Assembly (NCBI GenBank): GCA_000091205.1
Contig: AP006501.2
Length of the DNA stretch: 64,000 nt
Origin: Cyanidioschyzon merolae
Taxonomy: Eukaryota
Reading direction: 5' to 3' (one strand)
A program made the translations under genes and the position numbers. Under the pieces are notes generated by a model. That model had not been told where the DNA came from, searched no databases, and saw nothing but the letters and a program-made list of their open reading frames with translations. The stretch's first letter is position 1. Each line of letters starts with the position of its first letter. This document shows positions 1 through 62,859 of the stretch, one piece after another.

Positions 1-1849
1 TCCATCACCTTCCCAGGGATGAAGCATTCGTCGAGAGCCAATGGTGAACTTGGATGGACCGTTTCGATACAGGGTGCCGACGAGGTCATGAGGAAGGTCG
101 GGTAAGTCCAGTACGTAGGAGTCCTCCTCGTTCATATCGCCGTGCGCTAGCTCCCAGGATCGACGATCGAAAGCACTCAGCGACTGTGTTTTACCTGGTG
201 CCGAGGTTAGCTGGCCCTGTTCACGAACCGTGTTGGTCGCTCCGCTTTCCTGGGAACTCAGATGTGTCGCACCGCCGCTGCGAGCAGGCCGAAGGCTTCT
301 TCTCTTCAGTCTGCCACATTGGAAAGTAGCGGTGGCGTTCACACTAGCGCCCTTCCAGTGCCTGAGTGCACCGTTGCCGACCACGAAGGCAGTCTTATCT
401 CCAGGATGCAAATTCATACTGCAATGATATTATACGAGTTTAATCACTGGACCAACGAGTCCTCAAACGTCGTATAGTGGCCTGCGCACGAGTCCCTTCG
501 ATGCTGTAGCGGGAACATGCGCGTGATAGAATGGACTACGAGTCAGAGGTATGCATTTGCTCGAAGGATCGATCACAGGATGCAGGGGCGATTTGTACAA
601 ACCCTTCCAGACCTAACATTTCTGTATATCATAGAACAAGCGTCACGCACGGGCATCCCGCATATGCGAAACGCGCAGCGGCGGCCTATAACCTCATTGC
701 GGGCGATGCTTGATGACCCACGATGTGCGTGTCTCGAATGGGATTTTCCCAGGAGATGCCGTCCATATCGGTTCTTGGAGGCGAGATACCTCCTCTTCAG
801 CAGACAATTCTGCATTCTACTGCCGCAGAACCGGTCTTCTCGTAGGGGATAGTTGTTCGGTGCATCCAAAGGTCCACCTAGCGCCCAGGCATGCGTAGGC
901 GATTGCTGTACCACCGTCGCGGTCGCTGACTTCAGCCAGTGCGGCTTCGCGGTGCCTTGAGAGCCCGCACTGCGTTCTATTCTCGGGCACGAGCATTGCA
1001 CCGCACTCAATGCCCGTGGACGCGCGAACGCTGCCGATAATTTTCTACTGGATTCGCGTATCGCTTAGAATACACGCTCTGATTTTTTCCATATCGCAAA
1101 CGATCGCCTCCATGAAGCAACTTTGTCGCTCACGAAGCATCCGAAAGTGACCGTTCCTAACATGCCTTCGATAATCCTGCTCAAGATCAAGTACGGCTTG
1201 AGGAAGCGAGCGGCGCGAACGCCTTTCGATGCCTCGCGCGTACGCACATGATCCCTTCCTATCTGCGCAAGATCGATGAATCTGGACAAAACTCCTCACG
1301 GACACGACGATCGAAAAAGACGTGCACACAGTCTCAAGTTTCTCGATACGCGCACGCATCTGCAGGCCATGATCACGTAATCGGAACGCTTGCACTTTCT
1401 TCACTGTGTTTCCCCTGCCCTCATGTATTCCATGCCCTGAGATCGCGTGCTTCGTCATCGCATGCCGCGCATCCCCATGAGGTATCCGGATGCTGCGCTG
1501 CTGCATTCCCCCGAGGGGGCTTTTCCTCTCCATTCGCTGCCTGATGCAGAACTAGCGTGCGTCATTGAGACTGCACCAGAACCTTGCCTTCCCCGCACGG
1601 AAACAAGTCGTCGACATATGTTATCGGTATGCAACGCGAGATGGTCTATATCGTCTTGAGCAAGAAACACCGTACATAAAGCGAGCAAATTCGAACACGA
1701 TTTCCATGATACCCAGCGACGATCGTTGAGCGAGCGCGCGGGGCGCCACACCTGTGGATCTGGTAGTAGTGTCGGTACCCGCGCTGCAGGTAACGTTTCG
1801 TGTACCCAAACTGCAGACTGAGGACCTTGTTTCCAAAGCTTTTCTCATA

Positions 1850-3607
1850 ATGTGGGTTGTACCTGGCAGTTTTAGGGCACGACGATGCGACGGTTTTGGT
1901 GTAGAATGGACCTGGTCTGTTGATCGGGCCTGTGCAACAGTTCCGTGCTCGAGCCTGAGGCGACCGCGACCACGACAGGGCGCTACGGTGCGGCGAGAGC
2001 GAAACTGGAGTCAAAAGCCGTGTGGCGTCCCGGGCAACACAGTGGTGAGAGTCTCTTGCCATATAGGGCAAAGTTCGAGTAATGACGAGGGTGGCACTGG
2101 AGAGCCTCTGGTGCACAGCAGTGGCGAACAGGCGTGGCAGCGTCGTGCGCTCTCCAGCACCGGTACAAAGGACGCGGAGCTCGACGCTAATGAGCTGGAT
2201 GACGGCCTCTGGGGTATTGTTTCTCAGCTGCCAGTCAAGCGCATTCTCATCTGGGCTGCGTTCTGCTGGCTCGTGTACCTTTGTCGCCCGTTCATGGGTG
2301 TGTTATTCGGTACGTTCGTCGTCTCGTACGTCGGGGTCTCTTTTTGCCAATGGGGCACACGTTTTCTCCAGCGGTTCGGTATCCAGGCTGCCCGCCGTGT
2401 CATTGTTGGCGTCTACTACAGCGGCATCGCTTTGTTCATCACGACGATGAGCCTGTTGACGATCCCGCGGATCATCAAAGAGGGCCAGTACTTTGTGGGC
2501 ATCATACGGAGTAGCAATCCATACGTATGGATCGCGGATACCATGCGACGAGCCCTGGGTGATGAACTCTCTGCCAAGGTGGAGGCCTTGGTGCTCTCAG
2601 AGGGTTATGCTGAGCTTGCAGACCAAGACACCGGGTCGAGTGCTGGCCAGAGCCCGTCCACAAACGGAGCCGAGACTTCCGAAAGCACAAACGAGGCTTC
2701 TCCGGGGCCGGTGCAAGTCCGCATACCGCATCGCGGCAGCGCAGCAGATGCCAAGGCGGAACGAGCCCCTGGCATCGCTGCCGGTCCGCTAGCGACCATG
2801 AATGCACCGGCAGAGTGGACAGAGGAGCGATCGAGACGACTCGGTTTGATCATCCAAAAGTCACTTTCGCGTTATGTGAATCGTTTCGCCTCCATCGTCA
2901 GCAGGATTTTGAGCAACAGCACAAAAATCATTGTGAAAGTACTGCTTTCCCTGGTGTTCTCATTCCTGATCGTCTGGGATCTGCCATCTGTGGCTGCTGG
3001 CCTGCGTTCTCTTCGCCGCTCCCGACTGCGGGCAGCGTACTTGGAACTGGCGCCGGCCATTGGTGAGTTCTGCGCCCTCCTCGGCCGTTCATTCGAAGCA
3101 CAGTCGATTATTGCGCTTGTGAACACGACGTTGACAACGATTGGCATGGGGATTCTCGGGTTACCGGGTATTGGCTTTCTCTCTCTTCTCTGCTTGATAT
3201 GCTCTTTTATTCCGCTTTTCGGGATTCTGCTCAGCACACTGCCGATGTGTGTCGTCGCGCTGACGGAATACGGGCCAATGCGTGCATTCGCCGTCGTGGT
3301 TATGGTTGCAATTGTTCACCTGATTGAGGCCTATTTCCTGAATCCACAAATCTACAGCGCTCATCTCAAGCTGCCGCCCTTGGTTGTTCTTATGGTTCTG
3401 TACATTGGCGAGCATGCAGGTGGCGTCATGGGTCTTATTCTTGCAGTGCCGCTGACGGTTTATTTGTTGCGATGGATCTATGATATTCCAGAAACGAAGG
3501 AACGTTCTGCGTACGTGAGCTCTATGCGAGCGACCAGCTCGAATGGCAGAGAAGAGCCAAGCGAAGACGTGACGATCACGCGCCAGCAGCAGCAGCAGCA
3601 GCAATAG
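1850..3607 (+). CDS. AI-2E family transporter (PerM/UPF0118-like) membrane protein with an N-terminal extension, a long hydrophilic insert and a C-terminal Q6
   Basis: The ORF track entry 1754..3607 starts with GTG. The first in-frame ATG is at 1850. The C-terminal two thirds match the AI-2E pattern of conserved Gly/Pro-rich transmembrane helices (...GLPGIGFLSLLCLICSFIPLFGILLSTLPMCVVAL...LIEAYFLNPQIYSAHLKLPPLVVLMVLYIGEHAGGVMGLILAVPL...). The roughly 120-aa N-terminal extension is compatible with an organelle transit peptide. Confidence 0.6.
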   Translation: MWVVPGSFRARRCDGFGVEWTWSVDRACATVPCSSLRRPRPRQGATVRRERNWSQKPCGVPGNTVVRVSCHIGQSSSNDEGGTGEPLVHSSGEQAWQRRALSSTGTKDAELDANELDDGLWGIVSQLPVKRILIWAAFCWLVYLCRPFMGVLFGTFVVSYVGVSFCQWGTRFLQRFGIQAARRVIVGVYYSGIALFITTMSLLTIPRIIKEGQYFVGIIRSSNPYVWIADTMRRALGDELSAKVEALVLSEGYAELADQDTGSSAGQSPSTNGAETSESTNEASPGPVQVRIPHRGSAADAKAERAPGIAAGPLATMNAPAEWTEERSRRLGLIIQKSLSRYVNRFASIVSRILSNSTKIIVKVLLSLVFSFLIVWDLPSVAAGLRSLRRSRLRAAYLELAPAIGEFCALLGRSFEAQSIIALVNTTLTTIGMGILGLPGIGFLSLLCLICSFIPLFGILLSTLPMCVVALTEYGPMRAFAVVVMVAIVHLIEAYFLNPQIYSAHLKLPPLVVLMVLYIGEHAGGVMGLILAVPLTVYLLRWIYDIPETKERSAYVSSMRATSSNGREEPSEDVTITRQQQQQQQ

Positions 3608-3786
3608 CATCAGCAATGACGACAGTAGCAATAGCTACGGTAACAATAGCTGGGGCAAGGGCGTCAGGCAGCACCTGCTGGAAATATCCAGGAGACCTCT
3701 CTCGAATCACTTCGCAACAGCAGCAGCAGTAGTAGCATTGATAACGACAGTACCAGTAGTAGTAGCAGCAGCAGCAGCAGCTATGA
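3584..3786. repeat. Imperfect CAG/CAA/TAG-type trinucleotide microsatellite tract immediately 3' of the AI-2E stop codon
   Basis: Runs of cagcagcagcagcagca, cagcagcagcagtagtagca and agcagcagcagcagcagc are seen directly. The minus-strand poly-Cys/Tyr ORF 3576..4058 is an artefact of this tract. Confidence 0.6.
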
Positions 3787-5223
3787 CTGGGGCGCGGACG
3801 TCGAAGCGCTCCTGCTCGGAGTATCCGGATATCGATCCCGCCAGTGATGCGCTTCTTTGCACCATGAGCGCGCGTGGCAACCAGCTGTGCACAAGAGAGG
3901 AAAGTGCACCCATAACGAGCGCTTGCGTGCTCAGAGGCGTGCGCTTTTCGGTGGTGAGCACAGCGTGGTCCCAAACCTGCACCGAAGCTGGGGTGCTCTC
4001 TGTGATCTGGTTTCTGCAATTTTGGGTCGGGGCAAAGCCCAGATACCCTAAAGCCCACTGGGATTAGAATGGAACACTGAGTTGCTTGCTCTGTTTTAGT
4101 CTTTCGATTTCTTTCCGGGGTCTTTTCAGATGTGGAGCTTATTTATTCGAAGCTTGGCAGTAGGAGCTTACGGATGCGCACGTCGGCATCGGATTCTTGG
4201 TCGTCTTCTCCAAATGACTAATTCGACCATTTGCTGCTTGAATTCCTTACGGCACAGGGGTAAAGATGCTCTGTGACGCCCTCGAGCAAAGCTTCGAATC
4301 ATAATCGATATTATCGCCCTTTGCGTATGTTCATGTCTGTACGCTTCTCCTTTCTTAGCGTATGGCATGCGAAAGTCGTGCATTCCTCAATTCCTCAACC
4401 TTTCTGTTTGAAGCCGACCTGTGCACACTGCAATTCGCACGCTTCCATGAACGTGGAAATTACTCGACGTCGAGCCTTGACGACCGGTTCACAAGCACAT
4501 GCCCAACGCTCACTGAACTCGACGTACGATTCTAGAATCGATTCAATTTTGGGTGGCAAATCAGCCGCGCGCTGTGGCTATCGACGAACCGACATGGAGC
4601 AACTGGTCGACACCTCTCACGGTACGTGCTGCAAGAGGCTTCCGTCTCTTCTGTTTGCACGAAAACTGGTCTCGGACATCCACTTCAGTTATCACAGCGA
4701 TCGCTTCCAGCGCAGCGTGCAGCAACGCTTGACAAGAAGCGAGCCTAGCCGGATCGAATTTTCTCGATTTGTTCTCCAAACTGGATATAACTTTCCATGC
4801 TTGCTGCATCAACGACAGCACCCGATGCCGCATATCACCCATCGAATGGAACAGAGTGCACTTGTGTGCGCACTGGAAAGAGCTCTCTCCTGGCGAATCG
4901 CCCAGCGGATGCCCGTATTCGTGGGGTACGTACGGCACTGGGTGCTACGCATCCAGACTTGGCTTGTGCTCGAGTCCGGCGTTCGAGCAGGACACAGCAG
5001 GTATCCGCTGCTGGTTACCGAGGGTACTCCAGCGCACATGCCACGCTTTTTCTGCGACAGTGAAGCTGCGAGCGCAGCCCGTGGAGCTCCCGGTACGTCG
5101 AAACGTTCGCAAAGTTTGCGAACGAGTCAGCGGTACTCACGTCTGGTGAGCGTTTCGCGAGAAACCTGCTTCGGCTCTGCGTGTCGTACCGCTTGATTCT
5201 GACGAGATCTAGTGCAGCGTACG

Positions 5224-7194
5224 ATGGAGAGTCGACCGTATCACCGTTCATTTCTTGAACAGCTTAACGCAGAACTGTTGCTTTGGATCGCAGCGTACCT
5301 GGAGCCGTCGGAGGTGGAAGCTCTCTGGAGCGCCTCCCAATCGACTGCCTCAACTCTTCAATGGAATGATCTTGAGCACTTTTGCTTTGAGACGCTCCGC
5401 CGTCGCTATGGTTCTCTCTTCGCCCGACACCTTCAGCAAGCGTACCGCCAGGAGCGGGAAAGACGGGGTCCCGGTGGCGTCCGCGGGCCCTGGAGCTGGC
5501 GGCGGGCCTTCCACTGCGTCTACCACGCTCACCGGTGGCTGTTTGGCGTGAGCTTTCGCGCCAGCGCTCCGCATACGGAGACTTCGTCCATGACGTGGTC
5601 AGCAGTTTTTCGGGAGCGACGCAGCGCTCCGTCTGAGTCATCCCCGAGTCCACCGTGGGGCCGTCTCCTGGTCCAACGCTTCGACCAACGGGCCGTCGAG
5701 GGTATCGGGAATGGTGCGCTGCTCGCTGCCGTACTACGCATGCGACCTGACAGCGCTAGCCGAGACCCAGTGTATGCGGAATGTGCGCTGATTGTGACCC
5801 CGTATCGCATTGTCTGGTTCGAAGCGACACCCCTGTCCGGCTCTGATCTGTGCCTGGACACCGAGCGGAGTCACTTGCTCACCACGCCGCTCGTGCTGAC
5901 GGCAGCGCTGAGCGACGATGAGCGACTACTGGTGCTAGGTCGTCGAGGCTGCACCCTCGAAGTGCGTGATGTCATGACCTGCAACGTTGTTGCTGAGGCC
6001 CGCCTCCCGGTGCGCATTTCGAAACGGGACGAGTACTCGTGCCTCGACGCTGCGGGCGATATGATCGCAGCAGGCACCATGGCTGGTAGGCTTTTGATTT
6101 TCGATTGCACGCAAGCTCTCCAGAAGGGTGTCCAGCGAACGGGTACCGTGCGCCTGAAACCTGTGCGAATGGAAATAAGTACAAGCGGTGAGCCGCTCTC
6201 GCAGGTGCGCCTCTGCCGAAGCGCCGAAAGCAGTCATCGTCCCGATCTCGTTGTGGTGTGCACTCAAAAGCAGTTGCGCATCTACTATATCCAACTGGGA
6301 CTTTTTATCTTCCAGCGGGATTTCGAGCGCCCCATCCGTAGCGTACACAGCGCGCGCTCTCGTACCTGCATTTACATTGCTTCGGGGAGTACGGTGGACA
6401 TTATCGAACTACCGGCCTTGGAGTATGCGGCGACACTGGGGCGTCCATCGATCATGAGCGAAGACGATCAATTGACCTGTATTGCCGTTGACGAGCACGG
6501 CAATGTTGCTGGCGGCTGGAGCAGCGGACACGTAACCTTTTGGCCGGCACGAGGACGCCTCGTTGGCATCGCGCTAACCTACCACGATCGTCACTTGGAC
6601 CTGCACGAATGGAAGCAGTCTGGGCGTGTCTGTCGGACGGATCTCTCACAGGACGTCGATGAGCTTGAAAGGAATGCCCAGTCGGCATGGTGCGGATCCC
6701 GAAGCCCCATCCGAAGCATCTACGTCGATCGTGATCGAGTGATCAGCGCCTCGAGTGGCGGCGTTATAGAGGTTTTTGCTCACCAGCAGGTAATCGAGGC
6801 ACCAGCAGTTCATTCCTTACGACACGAATCATATGCTCATGCCTGGCAGCATTGCCGCACCGCTCGTATTTCGATACCGAACCTGCACGGAGACATCACG
6901 CATCTTAGTGCCGGGGAAGGGACACTGCTAGGCGGTCTCTGTGGCGACGCAGCGAGTGCGCAGCGGTTGCCGCTCGTCTTGCTTCAGTTCTCTGCGCTGC
7001 GAGACCAGAGTAATGGTGGCGCTGCAGAGGCCGACGAGTCGGCTGACACACTCGGCTGTGCTGGAGTTGCTGGCGGAGCACCCGTGCGGTATCGCGAAAA
7101 CGGTTGGCTCCCGCCCGCAGACATCATCCAGGCGTTCTGGGTGCTGGAGTCATCTGGTCCCGACAAGCTCGCGCCCGTCATCACCCGAGACTGA
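5224..7194 (+). CDS. Hypothetical 656-aa protein with no recognisable family
   Basis: Long uninterrupted ORF. The track start at 5212 is GTG and the first ATG is at 5224 (MESRPYH...). I could not align any diagnostic catalytic motif by eye. Confidence 0.35.
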   Translation: MESRPYHRSFLEQLNAELLLWIAAYLEPSEVEALWSASQSTASTLQWNDLEHFCFETLRRRYGSLFARHLQQAYRQERERRGPGGVRGPWSWRRAFHCVYHAHRWLFGVSFRASAPHTETSSMTWSAVFRERRSAPSESSPSPPWGRLLVQRFDQRAVEGIGNGALLAAVLRMRPDSASRDPVYAECALIVTPYRIVWFEATPLSGSDLCLDTERSHLLTTPLVLTAALSDDERLLVLGRRGCTLEVRDVMTCNVVAEARLPVRISKRDEYSCLDAAGDMIAAGTMAGRLLIFDCTQALQKGVQRTGTVRLKPVRMEISTSGEPLSQVRLCRSAESSHRPDLVVVCTQKQLRIYYIQLGLFIFQRDFERPIRSVHSARSRTCIYIASGSTVDIIELPALEYAATLGRPSIMSEDDQLTCIAVDEHGNVAGGWSSGHVTFWPARGRLVGIALTYHDRHLDLHEWKQSGRVCRTDLSQDVDELERNAQSAWCGSRSPIRSIYVDRDRVISASSGGVIEVFAHQQVIEAPAVHSLRHESYAHAWQHCRTARISIPNLHGDITHLSAGEGTLLGGLCGDAASAQRLPLVLLQFSALRDQSNGGAAEADESADTLGCAGVAGGAPVRYRENGWLPPADIIQAFWVLESSGPDKLAPVITRD

Positions 7195-7199
7195 TTAGG

Positions 7200-7900
7200 A
7201 AGGCGACTAGATACCACCATGCAACGGTGAGATGCATCTGGTACAAGGCACCGCGGAACGAACGCACGAGACGTTCGACTGCGTTCGTATAGTCAGCACA
7301 ACGGAAAACGTTCTGCAACCCTCGAGGGTATACGTCTATATATGTACTCACGTGCAGACGCCTATCAGCCGTTTTTTGACCTGCCACCTGCTATCGGTTT
7401 TAGTTTATCCAGGCACACTTTGAGTCTGAGAAGCTGAATAACAAAGTTGGATGGTGTCCGCTTCTCGGGTCTGGTCTTCAGCACCGCATATCCTCTAGTA
7501 TTGGTGGTGGCGTTCAAGTCTCCGTTCAAGGACGCCAAGCATTTGTATAGCCTCTGCTGGTTGCACGGACGAGTGCAAGAATAGCTAGCGTTTGCGCCCT
7601 CTGTGCTAATAAAGTCTCGTCGGCAAACATCTTTTCTCGCGTAGCTCCGCTCTTCTCCTTCTTTTTGCCCTACATCATTCGATAGTCGACAAGAAGAGTT
7701 TTTTTGTCGAACCTGGCGATGACAGGCCTCCGGGATCCCCGACTTGCATGTCCATATCTTTCCCTTGGATTTTCATTTCATCAAATGAACGTACGTTGAA
7801 CGCGTCTGCTATAAACCTCGAAAAAGCGTTTAGTCACACGCACTTAAGGCTGGAACACATTCGAGGCGAAAGACGATAACAACCGAGCCACCAGCTTGTC
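7200..7900 (+). repeat. Dispersed non-coding repeat, family A, copy 1 (about 700 bp)
   Basis: Shares collinear similarity of about 70-80% with 22380..23080. Shared strings include cagtttatccaggcaca, gagtctgaga.gctg, and tcgacaagaagagtttttttgtcgaa versus tcgaggagaagagttttttgtcgaa. It has no conserved ORF. Boundaries are approximate. Confidence 0.5.
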
Positions 7901-10505: not shown

Positions 10506-10670
10506 AACGTTTGCACTCACGCGTTGAGCATCGGGAAGTGAAGGCACAGCTGGAGCAGTCGCACTGGAAGAGGTCTCACAGTGCGGAGAGACGACGCGGG
10601 AACTGCCTCATACACGCTGAACACACAGGCGGTGGCGATTTGAATATGCGTGTTGACGCGCGTCGACAGC

Positions 10671-10937
10671 GGAGCGTTCATGCGTGCAGGTCGGCAGCAG
10701 CGCGTACTGCGTCCTGCTCGGGGTATGCTGTATTCAGCGTGTGTGAAACGACTGGATGCACCGGGCTCGTGCTTCGTAGTGAACGCTGGAGCTGGACTGG
10801 ACTACCGCGGAGCGTTCATGCGTGCAGGTAGGCAGCAGCGCGTACTGCGTCCTGCTCGGGGTATGCTGTATTCAGCGTGTGTGAAACGACTGGATGCACC
10901 GGGCTCGTGTTTCGTAGTGAACGCTGGAGCTGGACGG
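10671..10937. repeat. Tandem duplication, 2 x about 138 bp with a truncated second unit, in the RAD52/translin divergent intergenic region
   Basis: The unit starts ggagcgttcatgcgtgcagg(t/c)(c/a)ggcagcagcgcgtactgcgtcctgctcggggtatgctgtattcagcgtgtgtgaaacgactggatgcaccgggctcgtg... and is repeated almost exactly at 10671 and 10809. It yields the internally repeated ORF 10650..11012. Confidence 0.8.
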
Positions 10938-22379: not shown

Positions 22380-23080
22380 TGCGAATACGCACTCTGGATA
22401 GACGTACGGCTTCGAGTGGATGCAAAGCGAGGCGTCTCAGGTCTGTGGGGCAATGCGCATTGCCAATACGATCGGGAAAACGAACAATGTCCAGCGACGA
22501 TGCAGGGTACATGAATAGACTCCCGTGGACGGCTTCCAGTCATTTTTGAACGGCCCGATGCCATCGGGTTCAGTTTATCCAGGCACAGTGCGAGTCTGAG
22601 AGGCTGCTTCACAAAGTCGGCTCGCGTCAGCTCCTCAGATCTCGTCTTCAGGACCGCAGCTTGTCTGGTCAAGAGTACGGCGTCAAGGCTCGGGTCACGA
22701 ACGCCATATGTTTCTTGCCTCGCGTTGAACTCAGCCATGGAGGGAGTCCTAGAAAACGTGCCCGCTGTACGACTAGAGTCTCGTCATCGTCTCGTCGGGC
22801 AAACACCTTTTCTAGCCTATCTCCGCTCTTCATCCGCATCACTTGCACTTCTTCGCTCGATCGTCGAGGAGAAGAGTTTTTTGTCGAAACTGACGATGAC
22901 GGTCCTTCAGGATCCCGGATTTCCATCTCCGTACCTTTCTCTTGGGTTTTTTGTTTCCTCAAATGGACACACTTTGAACACATCTGTTATAGACCGCGAA
23001 TATACACTTCATGACACGCACCCGGAAACGGAACACCATTACGGTAAAAGACACCAGCGTACACCGCTGCAGCTACCTTG
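22380..23080 (+). repeat. Dispersed non-coding repeat, family A, copy 2
   Basis: Collinear with 7200..7900 (see that feature). Same orientation, about 15 kb away. Confidence 0.5.
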
Positions 23081-34331: not shown

Positions 34332-35456
34332 TCATGGATGAATAGTATCTTTGAATTCAAAGAACGAGTCATGCATGCGAATGAAAGAGTACTCCTCGCA
34401 TGACCCACAACACCCGTATAAATTAGGTTCTTTGTGAAAGATAGCGAACCCGGCGTGCATAAAACCTTGGAAAAACTCATCCACTTCTGGGATAGAGGCG
34501 ATACCCGCGTGCACTTCGATAAGGACTTGATTCACGTGCCGCAGCGCGTGCCAGGTTCTCAAGGCATATTGCTCTTCAGAGCTGAGTTCACGTTGGCTCC
34601 GTCCTTGGCGAAGGAGCTTGTCGGCTGCCCGGAACGCTCCCAAGAAAGAGGTGAACTCACCACCCTCGATATCGATCTTGAGCACCTCGACGACGTTTGG
34701 CAGCTCCAGGTGACCCAATCCAGACATGATCTCCGCCAGCGAATTGTTGCTCTCAGCCGGGCCAAGCGGCCGGCGAAAAAAACGAACGCGTTCCAGAAAG
34801 CTCTCGGAGTGCATCGCAGATGGTGGCGATGATGTTGGGTCAAAGACGAAAAAATCGCAGTCCGGCAAGCGTTCATGAAGCTTCGTTTCGAAACTGAAAT
34901 CGTTGTTGCTACCAAAACTGTACACAATGCAGCGATACGGGAGCCTGAGCTGCTCACGAAACAGCCGTCCCCGGTTCAGGATAGCAGGTGGGTCGCACAC
35001 CCATTTGCCACCGTCTCCGTTGTTACCGATCCGTTCCTCTAAGGCACAGCCGATATCCGGTTCCCAGTTATTGTAGAAAAAAACCGACGGGTTCGGTTCG
35101 AGGGTAACGGTCTGGCGCTTTCGCTGACGTCGTAACCGAATCCTCCGTTGGGCCCAGAGCGCGTCCGACTCGCACCAGAAGCCGAGCGACTCTTTCAGTG
35201 CTCGCGTGTCCTTCGAAGTCACTGGTAGGGTCCGGTCCCAAATCTCCGTCAGGGTTTTCGCGTTGCGCAAAGAGCTCCCACGACGAAGAGCCCTCGACAC
35301 GGAGCGAACGCAGCTGTCATCCACGGCGGGAAGATCCGCGCGCTGGACACCACTAGAGCGTCCGTTGAGAACACTAGTAGCGCGGTATATTACGATAAGA
35401 GCATAAATAAGAAAAGTCAAAGCCCCTGAAGCGATGCACGGTTTTCGCCACGTCAT
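34332..35456 (-). CDS. FkbM-family (Methyltransf_21-like) methyltransferase domain protein with an N-terminal hydrophobic anchor
   Basis: Shows ...CIVYSFGSNNDFSFETKLHERLPDCDFFVFDP...LKIDIEGGEFTSFL.... The first 80 codons of the track ORF 34332..35696 are a frame-shifted read of the element copy-1 3' tail (GRPLKVELYEKK echoes [12 protein letters not shown] of copy 2). I therefore place the start at the first ATG outside the element, 35456 (MTWRKPCIASGALTFLIYALIVIY). Confidence 0.5.
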   Translation of the reverse strand: MTWRKPCIASGALTFLIYALIVIYRATSVLNGRSSGVQRADLPAVDDSCVRSVSRALRRGSSLRNAKTLTEIWDRTLPVTSKDTRALKESLGFWCESDALWAQRRIRLRRQRKRQTVTLEPNPSVFFYNNWEPDIGCALEERIGNNGDGGKWVCDPPAILNRGRLFREQLRLPYRCIVYSFGSNNDFSFETKLHERLPDCDFFVFDPTSSPPSAMHSESFLERVRFFRRPLGPAESNNSLAEIMSGLGHLELPNVVEVLKIDIEGGEFTSFLGAFRAADKLLRQGRSQRELSSEEQYALRTWHALRHVNQVLIEVHAGIASIPEVDEFFQGFMHAGFAIFHKEPNLYGCCGSCEEYSFIRMHDSFFEFKDTIHP

Positions 35457-35489
35457 GCCGGCCACTGAAAACAAACGTCTTTCAAAAGA

Positions 35490-38400
35490 AAAACGCTGCC
35501 GCCAACGGTGTACAGTAGTTACGGGAAACGCGCCGTAAGCAAATCGTCTCCAGCTGAGGTGCAGACGCATCCCCGTCTTTTTCGACCGTCCACCTACTAC
35601 GTCTTTCATTTTCTTCTCATATAATTCCACTTTGAGAGGTCGCCCCACAGGTTCTCTCGTGTCGAATCTGGAGGTCTTTTCTCCAGCACCGCACATCTCC
35701 TGATATTGATAGCGACATTAAAGTCTCGGTTCACAAACTCCATGCGTTTCTTGCCATCTTTGGTTGTGCTTACTAATGCAAGTAGCCCACGAACTTTCGC
35801 CCTCCTTTCCATTTGCTCCTCCGTCAGCGGTCCGTACTTTGCTATTTCGTCAGGGCTCCTCTGGCACTTTTCCATCTCGATCCTTTGAAGTGTACAACAC
35901 AGTTCATGGTGTGTATACGATGTTCGGAACTCATCTACAGGTATTGTAACTAACCTGTCTGCACACCCCTTGTACGTTCTTGTCGTTGGAGCTCGTGTAC
36001 ACTCTTTTTCAGACGCCTAGCGCCCTGCTCCGTATGCTACTACCAGCCTTTGACTTTCATCCTCTTTGAAGGCACTCAGCTGACTGAAAAAGTTCGCGAA
36101 CGCACACTGCTTGCCACCGTATAGATTCATACGCAATCGAGGCCACCGGGGCTTTGTATACTCTTTCCACAGTGCCTCCTAATGAGCAATACGAACTTTC
36201 ATGAACTCCCGAAAAGCTTGAAAATCTGCTCCGCGGCTCGTCACCTCGCTCAAAGCTTCCAGGTGCTCTTTCATTCCTGCATTGCATGTCTCGTTTTTCT
36301 TCCTCGTATTCATCACACCGGATTCTCGATAGTATCTCGCTCTCGGGAACCTCAAAAGACGCATGTCTTTCTGAATGAAGTTGCCGTCTGGACCATATTC
36401 CGCACGCCTGGGTACAGCGATGGCTGTGACATTCGTATTCCCAGGGTCCGCGCCAACGACAAAGTCGTTATACTTCCTTTTCTGTGTGGCACAATCCGCC
36501 TCCTTCTCATCTTCATACCTCGTCACGTCAACGACAACGTCGTCATCCTCTACCTCTTGCGTAGCAGGATCCGCGTCTTTGTTTTCCTCATCCTTCGTGA
36601 CGGGCGCAGCCGAGGACGGAACTGGCCGAGCTGCCTTCAACCGCCGATAGTCTACACACTAGGCTACTCCATCGGTTTCGATCATCCCCGTGAATACCTT
36701 TTGCTTGCTCGTTTTGAGACGTTTGAAATCGAAGATGTTCTTCCAGTACGTCTCCCTGGTTTCACGGGTGAACTCTCTTTTCCTAAAGTTGAACTCCGGA
36801 CTGATTTCCCTCATGATGCCGTAAAGGACGCCGGAGTCGATAGTCACATAATGTGACTTGATGTTGCACAACGGAACGACGTTGAAGCGCTTCCCCATTA
36901 GGAAAGCCTTCTGTCTCTCCCACTCTTCATTCTTGTCCTCACTCGGCTTCATCTCCGCCTTGCGTTCGAGTTCACGGTCCAGAAACACGAAATAGCGCAG
37001 GATGAGGCGATAATGTCTTTCCTTATCTTTTTTCAACTCTGATACCTTTGCTGCTTGATTCGCCAGCCCCAGTACCGCACGGTGCTCTTGTATAGGCGCA
37101 CGGATTACAGAAGCTTCATTCGTGCTCCTGTGTGACGTCTTCTCATCAACGAATTCGATCTCATCTTCATGCTTGCGATCGTTCGTGATGCCATCGATAA
37201 TCGCCCATATTCCTTTGCGAGAGATGCCCGGATAGAGTGCAAACACCGCGCGTATGATGAAACGTTGGAGCTTCATGGTCATATGGTTCCTCAAGTTCGT
37301 GACGTACGTTTTCATCGCCCCGTAGGTGTAAACACTCGAGTCACCCCTGTATCGAGCACCGCCGAAGCGGGATTCGGTGTGGTTTTCGTGGAGGGCATGC
37401 ACTAGCTCATTTTGCTTCCGCGTTTCCGCTGTACCAAGCATCAGATGGCGAATAAAAGTCTTGTCGAATAATTCTTTCCGAACTTCGACTGTTTAGATGT
37501 CCGTCACGTCGCGATACATCCTCTTCACCAAATGCATGAGTCCTGAAGAGGCCTTTACAATACTCAAGGAGTACGACTCGTCATGGGTTCTGATAGCCTC
37601 CCGCACTTTTTCCCTGTACGGATCCTTGATATGTCCAAGAATACAGACTTTCACTACTGTCTCGTCGTACTGTCGTCTTTCTTGCAGCCATTGGCGTCGG
37701 GCTTCCATCTTTTGCTTCTTGGCCCTCTCCAGTTCCTGTGGACTCGGCACTGTTTTTCGGTTTTTTTTCTGGAAACCGGCGACACACTGGGCCTCCGGCA
37801 TCCTCCACTTCCACTTACGTACATTTCCTTTTTATTTTTTTGAAAAAGGAACCCCCTTTGACTGCTTCTTCTATGAACCGCGAACAATGACTTGAATACA
37901 CTCTCTTGAGAGTTGAAACACAACGGAATCGAAAAAATATACTTTGCTACGGCTTCAGAGCGAATACTACTCGTACATTAGAGCAGAATGCTAACGATCA
38001 GGATCGCGTTTCACTTCAACGGCGAGAAGCACGTCATGTATCATGCCCGCCAGATATGGAGATACGCGCATCGACCATGCTACACAAAAAAGGAAGAGAA
38101 ACTAGCAGTTCAATTGCAACGAGATAACGATTTCTTCTCCCTCTATGATACATATTAAAAGGGAGGCAAGATTTCCATGTAGTCGAAACTTTACTTTCCG
38201 GGCGGAAGGCCCTGCGAGCCGGACGAGTCTGCTAGACCAGTCCTTCATGATCTTCCCAGTGCTCAGTGCTGTGGTGATATTCGAGCAACTCGACCGAAAC
38301 GCAGTTTATTCTCGGGCCGGGGACGGGTATGCTGCGTCTGGGCATCGCGCTGGTCGCAGTGGACTCCTACAAAGTCGTTTCGCGCCACACTACACTGTAC

Positions 38401-38575
38401 CTCTGTCTGCGCAGAGTGCATGCTCCCAGGATGATATTGAATCCCGACCACGTTTCAGGTGAAGCTTTCCTCGATCCGAATCCCTCAGTGGTATGGCAAA
38501 GCCGCTCTGCCTCTATGATGCATCGGCATCAGCCGTATAAGCGCTTTTGCTGGAGGTCAAAGCGGGCACTCGGCG
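35490..38575 (-). mobile_element. TnpB/Fanzor-like RuvC-nuclease element, copy 1 (more decayed), inserted between the divergently transcribed FkbM-like and O-methyltransferase genes
   Basis: An about 3.08-kb block collinear with 58620..61636. The 5' 1.7 kb is about 99% identical between copies and the 3' 1.2 kb about 80-85%. Similarity stops at ...gggcactcggcgc (38575) and fades out near 35490. Confidence 0.6.
35606..37801 (-). pseudogene. Disrupted Fanzor/TnpB-like ORF of copy 1
   Basis: ORF0 37493..37801 (basic N-terminus, KKNRK / RAKKQK). In-frame TAA. ORF A 36659..37441, ending at a TAG where copy 2 has CTG. Fragment 36179..36640 carries RuvC-I ([11 protein letters not shown]). A gap at 35875..36179 lacks an ORF. 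Fragment 35606..35875 carries RuvC-III (NRDFNVAINI). Confidence 0.6.
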
Positions 38576-38794
38576 CACTTTAGTACTCACAAAACGATCC
38601 GTATATCCGAGAGGAAGTAAGCGTCATGGAACTTGAGGATAGGGTGCATCATGATGGACACTTTTTCGATTATTAATCCACATCCCGCAATTTGCGATCC
38701 AAGTACAATCTGAGCGTTTTGTCAAACCGAAAAGAAATCACCATGGCTGCAGACGCCCCCGGCGTGCTCACGAGTTGTTCAGCTCAGCGCCTCT

Positions 38795-58538: not shown

Positions 58539-58619
58539 GAGCGGTAGCTGCAGCAGCACTTGAAGCCATGAGCCCTTTTCGACCTTTCGTTGGTCTGTTC
58601 GGTAGTGGCAGCCGCCAAA

Positions 58620-58740
58620 CTACGCTCTGATGTCGGGCGTCGCCACCAGCGGTGTAGAATAGTGGCGAGAAAGTCGACCCAGAAAAATCGTTTCTAGCTG
58701 TCGTGCAGACGCCTCCCCGTCCTTCTCGACCGGCCACGTA
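58620..58740 (-). ncRNA. Candidate omega-RNA (guide RNA scaffold) region immediately 3' of the RuvC ORF stop codon
   Basis: The non-coding sequence 3' of the stop is conserved between copies for about 110-120 bp (for example gtgcagacgc.tccccgtc, aaatcgt.tc.agctg). It ends where the unrelated host flanks begin. This is by analogy with TnpB/Fanzor loci only. Confidence 0.25.
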
Positions 58741-59856
58741 CTACTGGTTCCATTTTTTTTCATATAGTTCCGCTTTGAGAGGTTGTCCAAGAAAAAGCTC
58801 TCGTGTCCACTCTGAAGGTCTTCTTTCCATCACCGCACATGTCCTTATATTGATAGCGGCATTAAAATCTCGGTTCACAAACTCCATACGTTTCTTGCCA
58901 TTGACTGTACTTAATAATGCGAGTAGTCCTCGAACATTCGCCCACCTTTCCATATGCTCCTCCGTCAGCGGTCCGTACTTTGCTATTTCGTCAGGGCTCC
59001 TCTGGCACTTTTCCATCTCGATCCTTTGAAGTGTACAACACAGTACATGGTGTGTATACGATGTTCGGAACTCATCTACAGGTACTATGACAAAACGTCG
59101 TGCGTACTCCTTATACGTTCTCGTCGTTGGAGCTGGTGTACACCCTTTTTGGGTCTTCGAGCGCGCTGCTCCGTACGCCACTACGAGCCTCTGACATTGA
59201 TCCTCTTTGAGGGCACTCAACCCATTGAAAAAATTCGCGAACGCCCGTTGCCTCCCACAATATAGATTCATACACAGACGAGCCCACCGAGGCTTTGTAT
59301 ATTCATTCCGCAGCGCATCCCAATGAGCAACACGAACATTCATGAATTTCAGAAAAGCTGTAAAGTCCGCTCCGCGGCTCGTCACCTCGCTCAAAGCTTC
59401 TACGTGATCCTTCATTCCTGCATTCCATGTCTCAATTTTCTTCGTTGCATTCATGATTCCCGATTCTCGATAGAATCTTGCTCTCGAGAACCTCAAAAGT
59501 CGCATGTCTTTCTGAAGCAAGTTACCGTCCTTACCATCTTCGGCACGCTTGGGTACAGCGATGGTTATGATATTTGTGTTTCCGGGGTCCGCGCCAACGA
59601 CAAAGTCTATCTCATGCACTTTCAGTGCCGCAGGATCCGCGTCTCTGTTTTCCTCATGCTTCGTCATGGGCGAAGCCGAAGGCACGATAGGAAGAAACGC
59701 CTCCAAGCGCTTGCAGTCTACACACAGGGCTACTCCATCGGTTTCGATCATCCCCGTGAATACCTTTTGCCTGCTAACTTTTGAGACGTCTGAAATCGAA
59801 GAGACTCTTCCAGTACGTGTCAGGGGCTTCGCCGGTGAACTCTGTCCGCCTTCCAT
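58741..59856 (-). CDS. Element ORF B: TnpB/Fanzor-type RuvC nuclease domain with a degenerate zinc-finger insert
   Basis: Ruv[20 protein letters not shown]. Ruv[29 protein letters not shown]/Zn-finger remnant H..CC....C. Ruv[23 protein letters not shown]. The order and spacing are as in TnpB/Fanzor/Cas12. It continues the ORF A reading frame after the +1 shift (shared ...[13 protein letters not shown]). Confidence 0.65.
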
Positions 59857-60508
59857 CGAACTCCGGACAGATCCCCTTCATGATGCCATGAAGGACGCCG
59901 GAGTCGATAGTCACATAATGTGACTTGATGTTGCACAACGGAACGACGTTGAAGCGCTTCACCGCTAGGAAAGCCTTCTGTCTTTCCCACTCTTCACTCT
60001 TGTCCTCACTCGGCTTCATCTCCGCCTTGCGTTCGAGTTCACGGTCCAGAAACACGAAATAGCGCAGGATGAGGCGATAATGTCTTTCCTTATCTTTTTT
60101 CAACTCTGATACCTTTGCTGCTTGATTCGCCAGCCCCAGTACCGCACGGTGCTCTTGTATAGGCGCACGGATTACAGAAGCTTCATTCGTGCTCCTGTGT
60201 GACTTCTTCTCATCAACGAATTCGACCTCATCTTCATGCTTGCGATCGTTCGTGATGCCATCGATAATCGCCCATATTCCTTTGCGAGAGATGCCCGGAT
60301 AGAGTGCAAACACCGCGCGTATGATGAAACGTTGGAGCTTCATGGTCATATGGTTCCTCAAGTTCGTGACGTACGTTTTCATCGCCCCGTAGGTGTAAAC
60401 ACTCGAGTCACCCCTGTATCGAGCACCGCCGAAGCGGGATTCGGTGTGATTTTCGTGGAGGGCGTGCACTAGCTCATCTTGCTTCCGCGTTTCCGCTGTA
60501 CCAAGCAT
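59774..60508 (-). CDS. Element ORF A: N-terminal (non-RuvC) half of the Fanzor/TnpB-like protein
   Basis: ATG confirmed at 60506..60508. It is 244 aa and about 95% identical to copy-1 ORF A (36659..37441). It ends at a stop created by a +1 insertion relative to copy 1 (aaaagttagcaggcaaaagg versus aaaacgagcaagcaaaagg). Confidence 0.55.
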
Positions 60509-60559
60509 CAGATGGCGAATAAAAGTCTTGTCGAATAATTCTTTCCGAACTTCGACTGT

Positions 60560-60883
60560 TTAGATGTCCGTCACGTCGCGATACATCCTCTTCACCAAAT
60601 GCATGAGTCCTGAAGAGGCCTTTACAATACTCAAGGAGTACGACTCGTCATGGGTTCTGATAGCCTCCCGCACTTTTTCCCTGTACGGATCCTTGATATG
60701 TCCAAGAATACAGACTTTCACTTCTGTCTCGTCGTACTGTCGTCTTTCTTGCAGCCATTGGCGTCGGGCTTCCATCTTTTGCTTCTTGGCCCTCTCCAGT
60801 TCCTGTGGACTCGGCACTGTTTTTCGGTTTTTTTTTTCTGGAAACCGGCGACACACTGGGCCTCCGGCATCCTCCACTTCCAC
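60560..60883 (-). CDS. Element ORF0: basic (NLS-like) N-terminal segment of the Fanzor-like protein, separated from ORF A by an in-frame TAA present in both copies
   Basis: Reads ...KKNRKTVPSPQELERAKKQKMEARRQWLQERRQYDETEVKVCILGHIKDPYREKVREAIRTHDESYSLSIVKASSGLMHLVKRMYRDVTDI. Copy 2 has an A10 run where copy 1 has A8, which shifts the N-terminal frame. The in-frame start is GTG. Confidence 0.45.
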   Translation of the reverse strand: MEVEDAGGPVCRRFPEKKNRKTVPSPQELERAKKQKMEARRQWLQERRQYDETEVKVCILGHIKDPYREKVREAIRTHDESYSLSIVKASSGLMHLVKRMYRDVTDI

Positions 60884-61710
60884 TTACGTACATTTCCTTT
60901 TTATTTTTTGAAAAAGGAACCCCCTTTGACTGCTTCTTCTATGAACCGCGAACAATGACTTGAATACACTCTCTTGAGAGTTGAAACACAACGGAATCGA
61001 AAAAATATACTTTGCTACGGCTTCAGAGCGAATACTACTCGTACATTAGAGCAGAATGCTAACGATCAGGATCGCGTTTCACTTCAACGGCGAGAAGCAC
61101 GTCATGTATCATGCCCGCCAGATATGGAGGTACGCGCATCGACCATGCTACACAAAAAAGGAAGAGGAACTAGCAGTTCAATTGCAACGAGATAACGATT
61201 TCTTCTCCCTCTATGATACATATTAAAAGGGAGGCAAGATTTCCATGTAGTCGAAACTTTACTTTCCGGGCGGAAGGCCCTGCGAGCCGGACGAGTCTGC
61301 TAGACCAGTCCTTCATGATCTTCCCAGTGCTCAGTGCTGTGGTGATATTCGAGCAACTCGACCGAAACGCAGTTTATTCTCGGGCCGGGGACGGGTATGC
61401 TGCGTCTGGGCATCGCGCTGGTCGCAGTGGACTCCTACAAAGTCGTTTCGCGCCACACTACACTGTACCTCTGTCTGCGCAGAGTGCATGCTCCCAGGAT
61501 GATATGGAATCCCGACCACGTTTCAGGTGAAGCTTTCCTCGATCCGAATCCCTCAGTGGTATGGCAAAGCCGCTCTGCCTCTATGATGCATCGGCATCAG
61601 CCGTATAAGCGCTTTTGCTGGAGGTCAAAGCGGGCACTCGGCGCCCGATAGAATATACAAAAAGACTAGTACGTCCGAAAGGAGGTACCTTTCATGGAAC
61701 AAAAACGTAG

Positions 61711-62859
<1,149 letters not shown>

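Follow-up and report, generated by a model that had tools for sequence, protein, structure and literature searches.

Two element copies with a mosaic pattern of identity

The window analysed here, a 64,000 bp stretch of the Cyanidioschyzon merolae contig AP006501.2 (assembly GCA_000091205.1), contains two copies of a transposable element that is predicted to code for the RNA-guided nuclease Fanzor1. Copy A is about 3.27 kb in length (35469–38737) and copy B about 3.19 kb (58616–61809); both are pseudogenes, the gene is on the minus strand in each, and the two are in direct orientation, separated by 23,067 bp. A pairwise comparison of the A flanks with the B flanks finds unrelated sequence. The termini of the two copies (with 5′ ends at about 38737 and 61809) were set by family alignments, and the 3′ end of A is fixed additionally by a contig (L087) whose flank departs from A at ~35468. 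All of the element features described below are on the minus strand. The arrangement of identity between the two copies is complex, and it is very probable that sequence has been copied from one locus to the other.

The identity profile, taken from a global pairwise alignment in sliding 100-column windows, is not uniform: between A coordinates ~36830 and 38580 the copies are 97–100% identical, and between 35500 and 36830 they are 75–87% identical. A two-breakpoint maximum chi-square scan selects A 36824–38574, with 14 differences at 1750 sites against 310 at 1446 sites outside (chi-square 370, compared with a maximum of 21.8 in 300 permutations; Fisher p 3e-95). The mosaic divergence that the original prediction described from the two copies is borne out by both analyses, with the breakpoint at 36823/36824 (59890/59891 in B), ~20 bp away from the 36845 given there. 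The string described as shared by the copies at this junction corresponds to 36837–36893, and the two substitutions reported within 37906–38127 are present, at 38099 and 38062.

Along the element at least five segments can be distinguished, with at least four switch points; from the 5′ end the successive identities are 58.6%, 99.2%, 80.7%, 98% and 77%. There are three principal parts. The first is a homogenised block of 1753 bp in copy A (36824–38576) that is 99.2% identical to B 59891–61644, and which is also present in a B-locus contig from another sample (L032); it takes in the non-coding sequence on the 5′ side and roughly 325 codons from the start of the Fanzor open reading frame (ORF), and its borders are sharp (38577/38576 and 36824/36823). 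The second is the 5′-terminal segment, S1 (A 38577–38737), which is only 58.6% identical to B 61645–61809. As this outermost ~160 bp is so diverged, the near-identical block is internal, and does not extend at 99% identity from the 5′ end of the element (~38737) as had been proposed. The third, S3, is the 3′ RuvC half together with the 3′ tail (A 35469–36823, with its counterpart at B 58616–59890), about 77–81% identical between the copies except within an island at A 35801–35899 and B 58942–59040, where there are 2 differences at 99 sites (~98% identity). The earlier picture of a 99% identical 5′ part and an 80–85% identical 3′ part is correct in recognising near-identical and diverged portions but omits the 5′ terminus and the island; likewise, its description of low identity throughout the 3′ part applies to most of that half but not to the whole of the RuvC region, in which the island lies.

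The coding sequence is disrupted in both copies. Copy A has a single continuous frame (37801 to 35606) interrupted by four in-frame stops. One of these, a TAA at 37493–37495 that is also present in B (60560–60562), splits the Fanzor ORF and separates what had been viewed as two reading frames, ORF0 and ORF A; these are one frame, and the homogenised block takes in about 205 codons of ORF A rather than about 150. The other three are TAG codons private to A, distributed over 36017–36661 (36659–36661, 36179–36181 and 36017–36019), at positions where B and the family majority carry sense codons; that at 36179–36181 is missing from one A-locus contig (L089). In copy B the shared TAA is accompanied by a +1 frameshift (near 59778) and, close to the ORF start, by a 2-nt insertion or deletion in a T run (near 60836). 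Neither copy therefore has the intact ORF expected of a functional Fanzor1. The private disabling mutations of A and B in the parts that they do not share indicate that both copies have been resident for a long time.

The shared TAA is informative as to the history of the block. Among 58 aligned family sequences, 45 have GAA at 37493–37495, and TAA is present solely in A, B and the B-locus contig L032. This is a shared derived GAA-to-TAA change inside the block, from which it follows that a defective sequence was copied. Intact ORFs are found elsewhere in the same 58 sequences only in L001/L012 and L022, with open frames of 770–819 codons; these intact copies lie at L001 4001–6259 (also in L012) and within L022 44–3112.

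A and B also differ by a 75-nt insertion or deletion (36470–36544 in A) that reflects copy-number variation of a tandem repeat in the linker preceding the RuvC domain. The repeat unit is 25 codons and acidic, and the linker is disordered in the structural model described below, with a predicted local distance difference test (pLDDT) score below 50. The intact L001 copy (5149–5449) has four of the 75-nt units, and A and B have about two and about one, respectively.

Comparison with the element family

A metagenome-contig scan provided the family background, with 80 loci (designated by L numbers) examined out of at least 390 confirmed related stretches; the 80 loci reduce to 40 different copies. 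PMC8986864 describes one of the metagenomes concerned as coming from Yellowstone. Mean pairwise identity among the 40 copies is 0.40–0.50 in the first ~600 bp of the element, 0.65–0.78 in the next ~700 bp, and 0.80–0.85 in the 3′ half. The comparison of A with B matches this background everywhere except in the block, where identity is 0.99–1.00; around 36811–37110 the family identity is 0.82–0.86, the top of the range for the 5′ half. With the family background low in the 5′ part, and A and B average in the 3′ half, it is the block that is anomalous and not the 3′ half.

The relationships of A and B to the other copies differ sharply along the element. First, in the block each of A and B has the other as its nearest neighbour in 100% of bootstrap replicates, and the next-best match among the sampled copies is 71–81% identical. 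Second, in the 3′ half their ranks among one another's neighbours fall to 23rd and 12th of 39, and they are nearest neighbours in 0–1% of replicates; the next-best match to either 3′ half is 73–84% identical among sampled copies, and both halves are equidistant from the other 38 copies. Third, at the 5′ terminus B ranks 9th of 39 among the neighbours of A, with the two again nearest in 0–1% of replicates. These comparisons point to 3′ halves that are anciently separate lineages and a block of very recent common origin. An origin of the block as a separate mobile insert in both copies was considered and ruled out, since it is colinear with, and 71–81% identical to, the same part of all other family members.

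The raw two-copy pattern, taken by itself, is also what would be seen if the two parts had changed at unequal rates, either because the 5′ 1.75 kb is constrained or because a recent duplication was followed by hypermutation of the 3′ part. However, the 5′ part is the least conserved region of the family (0.40–0.78, against 0.80–0.85 in the 3′ half), and the block contains a nonsense codon. Furthermore, derived changes in the 3′ half are spread symmetrically over the two copies (A 104, B 117), the transition/transversion ratio is about 1.1 with no excess of transitions, and neither 3′ half is further than the other from the 38 remaining copies. Synonymous divergence (dS) between the 3′ halves is ~0.34, compared with 0.014 in the block, and the ratio of nonsynonymous to synonymous divergence (dN/dS) is 0.41–0.44, a value below one that argues for 3′-half divergence having built up partly under purifying selection. 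The family profile and the symmetry of the 3′ changes exclude differential constraint and local hypermutation, and the probability that we attach to unequal rates is vanishingly small.

The same two loci in other assemblies

Both loci are represented in other samples. L003 is locus A elsewhere, with an upstream flank that is 99.9% identical to that of the window; L032 is locus B, with both flanks 99.2–99.6% identical; and L043 is the 3′ part of locus B. L003 and L032 show the same mosaic as the window. Exact-protein look-ups added five A-locus contigs and a further four contigs through the upstream O-methyltransferase (OMT) gene that flanks A; similar look-ups with FabG, with the ORFs of 371 and 260 codons, and with the 454-codon methyltransferase ORF gave no match.

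The island offers the clearest view of an individual event. In copy B it occupies 58942–59040 and is of A type, corresponding to A 35801–35899; B-type sites at 58936 and 59045 bound it on either side. The window copy of B has the A base at 17 diagnostic sites in a row, at which both L032 and L043 have the B base and all six of six A-locus contigs the A base; every other sampled copy is at most 89% identical to the island. The B-type state in L032 and L043, and the A-type state in window B, imply an A-to-B conversion after the window lineage split from the others. We conclude from these alignments that the island is a gene conversion of about 100–110 bp, from an A-type donor into B.

The large block has a different distribution: all assemblies that span it have it at both loci, with two fixed differences between the A and B loci within it (37656 and 37159). 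Its presence in all samples, together with these two differences, indicates that the large event predates the split of the sampled populations. Polymorphisms at 38438, 37719 and 37551 (and 37411) are common to both loci across samples, as continuing exchange would predict, although short-read phasing in a 99% identical repeat is unreliable.

An assembly or consensus artefact, arising from a jump in the contig path or from mixed reads of the two paralogues, has to be weighed here, given that the metagenomes were assembled from short reads. In seven other assemblies, eight contigs (L083–L086, L087, L088, L090 and L091) all terminate within the block or at its border, at A coordinates 36860, 36960, 37044, 37093, 38413, 38454 and 38547 (twice), and one A-locus contig (L089) has Ns and an odd cluster of differences. 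Such breaks, however, are expected of a real repeat, and a block present at one locus alone would give none; they are thus independent evidence that the repeat is real. There are further arguments against an artefact. First, the same mosaic is present in independent assemblies of both loci (the window, L003, L032 and L089). Second, at one edge of the island the B-type site (35904 in A coordinates) and the first A-type site (35899) are just 4 bp apart, with no shared k-mer, so that an assembly-graph jump is impossible there and the junction must be carried by reads. Third, variants private to B lie 70 bp from B-type 3′ sequence. An artefact is thus extremely improbable as the source of the mosaic.

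These private variants are five derived substitutions in window copy B within a 37-bp cluster (59961–59997; A 36894–36930), ~70 bp inside the 3′ edge of the block. At the five sites all A-locus contigs, L032, and 32–37 of 38 family copies have the other base, and no donor was found among the sampled family copies; the cluster could be a repair scar or derive from an unsampled donor.

Two of the A-type contigs have peculiarities of their own. L089 has the family-majority base at 10 sites within 36084–36397 where window A and five A-locus contigs are derived, and its divergence from A is 3–4% in this interval compared with about 0.5% elsewhere. No donor for the 36084–36397 cluster in A was found among sampled copies, and L089, an older assembly, may be a mixed consensus. 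In L087, positions 1–1401 are an A-type 3′ half that is 100% identical to L003, and 1402–6255 are a different downstream flank, from ~35468; it is either locus A in a structurally variant form or an A-type copy at a second site.

Probable gene conversion between dispersed copies

We interpret the mosaic as the product of non-allelic (interlocus) gene conversion, without crossover, between dispersed transposon copies, and consider it highly likely, taken jointly with the view that A and B are copies of a Fanzor1-encoding element that inserted independently long ago and have since been inactivated. Of the explanations put forward originally, recent conversion between copies is therefore the favoured one. 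Four observations carry this interpretation. First, near-identity is bounded on both sides by divergence of the level that separates paralogues. Second, the tract and the rest of the element are phylogenetically incongruent when placed in the family, as the bootstrap values of 100% and 0–1% illustrate. Third, flanks are retained, both of those of B and the upstream flank of A being 99.2–99.9% identical in L032 and L003. Finally, an unconverted state is seen at the same locus, for the island only, in the B locus of other samples.

The other origins suggested at the outset, recombination between subfamilies or a chimeric element, would make B (or A) a pre-formed chimera, generated by template switching or subfamily recombination and then inserted as a mosaic. 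Recombinant transposon copies are common, the 5′ regions of this family are variable in a subfamily-like manner, L087 joins an A-type 3′ half to a different flank, and three other pairs of loci share part of an element, showing that exchange or contig chimeras occur in the data set. An internal block, though, would require two switches, and the mosaic as a whole has at least four switch points; moreover, the unshared segments have no relative above ~84% identity among the 80 loci, in which neither a parent copy nor a parental subfamily was found. The private disabling mutations in the unshared parts point to long residence, and the island demonstrates conversion in place between exactly these two loci. 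A pre-formed chimera is accordingly very unlikely.

The three pairs of loci, each from different samples, are L019/L031, L004/L013 and L035/L027. In each, part of the element is 99–100% identical and the rest 55–88%; L019/L031 and L004/L013 also have one flank in common at 99–100%, the other flank being unalignable. They could be crossovers between copies or contig chimeras.

As to mechanism, conversion could have begun with a break or double-strand gap in one copy, the paralogue 23 kb along the chromosome serving as template for the repair. The ends of the repair would have been anchored in conserved blocks, such as the identical 57 bp at 36837–36893 and the block adjoining 38576. Gap repair or synthesis-dependent strand annealing would need no homology across the replaced interior, and as the interior of the block was formerly probably only 50–80% identical, either process fits better than heteroduplex formation across the whole tract. 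Once made, the 1.75 kb of identity would ease repeated exchange, giving rise to the polymorphisms that are common to both loci. The process looks neutral, in that it neither rescues nor requires nuclease function. The direction of the large event is less apparent than that of the island, and there is a weak hint that it too was from A to B, with the block native to A: L036 and L049 are among the best relatives of both the block and the 5′ terminus of A, and the correlation of neighbours across segments gives Spearman values of 0.33 against 0.20, although the nearest-neighbour lists are indecisive and the family is star-like.

Several considerations weigh against conversion between A and B. First, no sample retains the large block as it was before conversion; that this block was converted in place is a parsimony argument, based on the island and on the block being internal to the element. 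Second, the probable identity of only 50–80% across the block interior before the event is unfavourable for ordinary homologous recombination, and makes it necessary to invoke gap repair. Third, these are metagenome assemblies in which block variants may be mis-phased between the loci, which weakens the argument from shared polymorphism. Fourth, with 80 of at least 390 related stretches examined, an unsampled donor or parent copy could be present. Finally, no homogenised tracts were found in other neighbouring pairs of copies (L041, L012, L064 and L065), and the cases of L041 and L012 count here in particular: these unhomogenised pairs show that proximity alone is no guarantee of conversion. 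The pairs in L041 (1424–7111, ~130 bp apart) and L012 (1–4727) are inverted and head-to-head, and their members are 78–82% identical.

The nature of the encoded protein raises the further question of what made the break. Cleavage by the RNA-guided Fanzor nuclease of an intact family member would constitute a homing-like form of concerted evolution, and it is compatible with the assignment of the family to Fanzor1, with the few intact copies elsewhere (L001/L012 and L022), and with reports that TnpB-type nucleases prompt restoration of transposons through gene conversion (PMC13565253). Yet A and B are both pseudogenes, and the sequences directly 3′ of A and B, where guides are expected, have no match within 3 mismatches in the sibling copy. 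Cleavage would be expected at an empty site or at the 3′ end of the element, and the tracts are at neither. We view nuclease-triggered breaks as highly improbable. The broader proposition that intact Fanzor1 copies drive homing-like homogenisation, with the clusters of substitutions at B 59961–59997 and A 36084–36397 as scars of break repair, is speculative and very unlikely.

Identity of the encoded protein and the element

Assignment of the protein required a diverse alignment. Neither the window ORFs nor a repaired 709-residue protein reached the threshold of any Pfam model (the best match, on a 10-residue motif, having E = 0.37), and a PDB sequence search with the single protein and with a shallow 44-sequence profile gave no match. 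A database search identified 43 close relatives, all from JGI metagenomes, and an exhaustive profile search 1522 proteins. A profile of 46 diverse members matches, among PDB sequences, the Fanzor1 proteins of Parasitella (PpFz1, E 1e-20), Spizellomyces (SpuFz1, 3.2e-12) and Guillardia (GtFz1, 1.1e-5).

The structure of a family member, P0001, that is ~61–69% identical to the window copies was modelled, with a pLDDT of 79 and a predicted template modelling score (pTM) of 0.77 on the diverse alignment; a shallow alignment gave a pLDDT of 36. The top seven Foldseek matches to the model are all Fanzor1, with E values down to 6e-16 and a target-normalised template modelling score (TM-score) of 0.74 to SpuFz, whereas matches to Fanzor2 and Cas12 are weak. 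In the diverse alignment RuvC residues D484 and E656 are invariant and D725 nearly so; the corresponding motifs in A are GADPG (36440–36454), DEFRTS (35918–35935) and NRDFN (35717–35731), and all three are also in B. The predicted RuvC catalytic D-E-D triad is thus conserved, and on the basis of both the profile and the modelled fold we assign the family to Fanzor1.

The solved Fanzor1 structures are those of Spizellomyces punctatus (8GKH and 9CEZ), Parasitella parasitica (9CF0) and Guillardia theta (9CER). The family described here resembles these in sequence homology, whole-chain fold, the RuvC D/E/D residues and a length of ~700–800 residues, and is like Fanzor1 elements in its many genomic copies and conserved 3′ tail. 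It differs in that the window copies are pseudogenes and that, between RuvC-II and RuvC-III, the cysteine-rich zinc finger appears degenerate. It differs further in that no transposase was found and a search for terminal inverted repeats of the element found none, and in having an omega-RNA that is only a candidate. The family profile reveals no second conserved ORF in the element, and the 5′ ~900 bp are poorly conserved.

The candidate omega-RNA is the conserved non-coding 3′ tail, located at 35469–35610 in A and 58616–58740 in B. It has three hairpin-capable blocks, the terminal one of which occurs in two forms, CGTTCGACTTTCGAACG and CGTTTTTCTTTTGAAAGACG. Across the tail 80.6% of alignment cells can pair, compared with 34–58% with slid partners, and covariation is not above that in shuffles. 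RNAalifold did not recover the hairpins in the tail, and Rfam and tRNA scans of the window gave no match. The tail is a candidate for an omega-RNA scaffold or for the right end of the element.

Relationship to known systems

Ectopic gene conversion among transposon copies is well established, having been described for human long terminal repeat (LTR) and human endogenous retrovirus (HERV) sequences (PMC4921805), for Alu elements (PMC8230782), and for transposable elements generally (PMC6598467). The A/B pair resembles these cases in the presence of a near-identical patch in diverged paralogues, the retention of flanks, the conflicting phylogenies of the segments, tracts of about 0.1 to 2 kb, and the physical closeness of the partners. 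Yeast Ty elements are a further example of non-allelic gene conversion. The present case departs from the usual ones in three respects: the DNA elements carry Fanzor1 and reside in a highly compact algal genome, one of the tracts is polymorphic with the unconverted allele alive in sister populations, and the partners were ~20% or more diverged, which is beyond what efficient conversion usually involves. In 'restorative homing' by TnpB and IscB, the nuclease triggers gene conversion that uses the sister chromatid to restore a transposon after its excision (PMC13565253). The A/B events share with it the protein superfamily and gene conversion as the outcome; however, in restorative homing a whole element is restored at an empty site, whereas here an internal part has been overwritten from a paralogue at another locus.

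The process is thus an already known one, and A and B are a clear new example of it in a characterised protein family that leaves current understanding unchanged. What the locus provides is a record of two events, an old 1.75-kb tract that is fixed in the sampled populations, and a young tract of ~100 bp with a surviving unconverted allele, the latter yielding donor, recipient and tract length without modelling. Three consequences follow. Copy-to-copy identity in this family is unusable as a measure of insertion age; ORF0 and ORF A have to be treated as one broken gene and not two; and conversion appears able to overwrite sequence that was probably 50–80% identical, anchored on short conserved blocks. 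The sequences also point to an unannotated, many-copy Fanzor1 family in a thermoacidophilic red-alga lineage, the intact members of which are possible heat-tolerant RNA-guided nucleases.

Other features of the window

The window has a G+C content of 55–57% and long ORFs without introns. The closest relative of the flanking FabG is in Cyanidiococcus yangmingshanensis (68% identity), followed by Gracilariopsis chorda and Cyanidium caldarium. Taken with the Yellowstone metagenome among the sources of the family, these features make a cyanidiophycean red alga of hot springs the probable host. Element A sits directly upstream of a host gene of the Methyltransf_22 family; this ORF (34332–35696, on the minus strand) lies downstream of A and runs into the 3′ tail of the element. 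Gene callers place its start at ~35609, and the N-terminal extension is probably spurious.

Two relics of ~500 bp each (7346–7843 and 22519–23021) are 70% identical to one another. The first fuses a piece resembling the C-terminal coding region (A 35673–35749) to one resembling the ORF start (A 37762–37887), and the second has a direct match to the C-terminal piece only (A 35721–35755); both are likely to be internally deleted, degenerate copies of the element. Unrelated to the element are two tandem direct units of 132 nt at 10666–10935, which are 98% identical and have a spacing of 138 nt.

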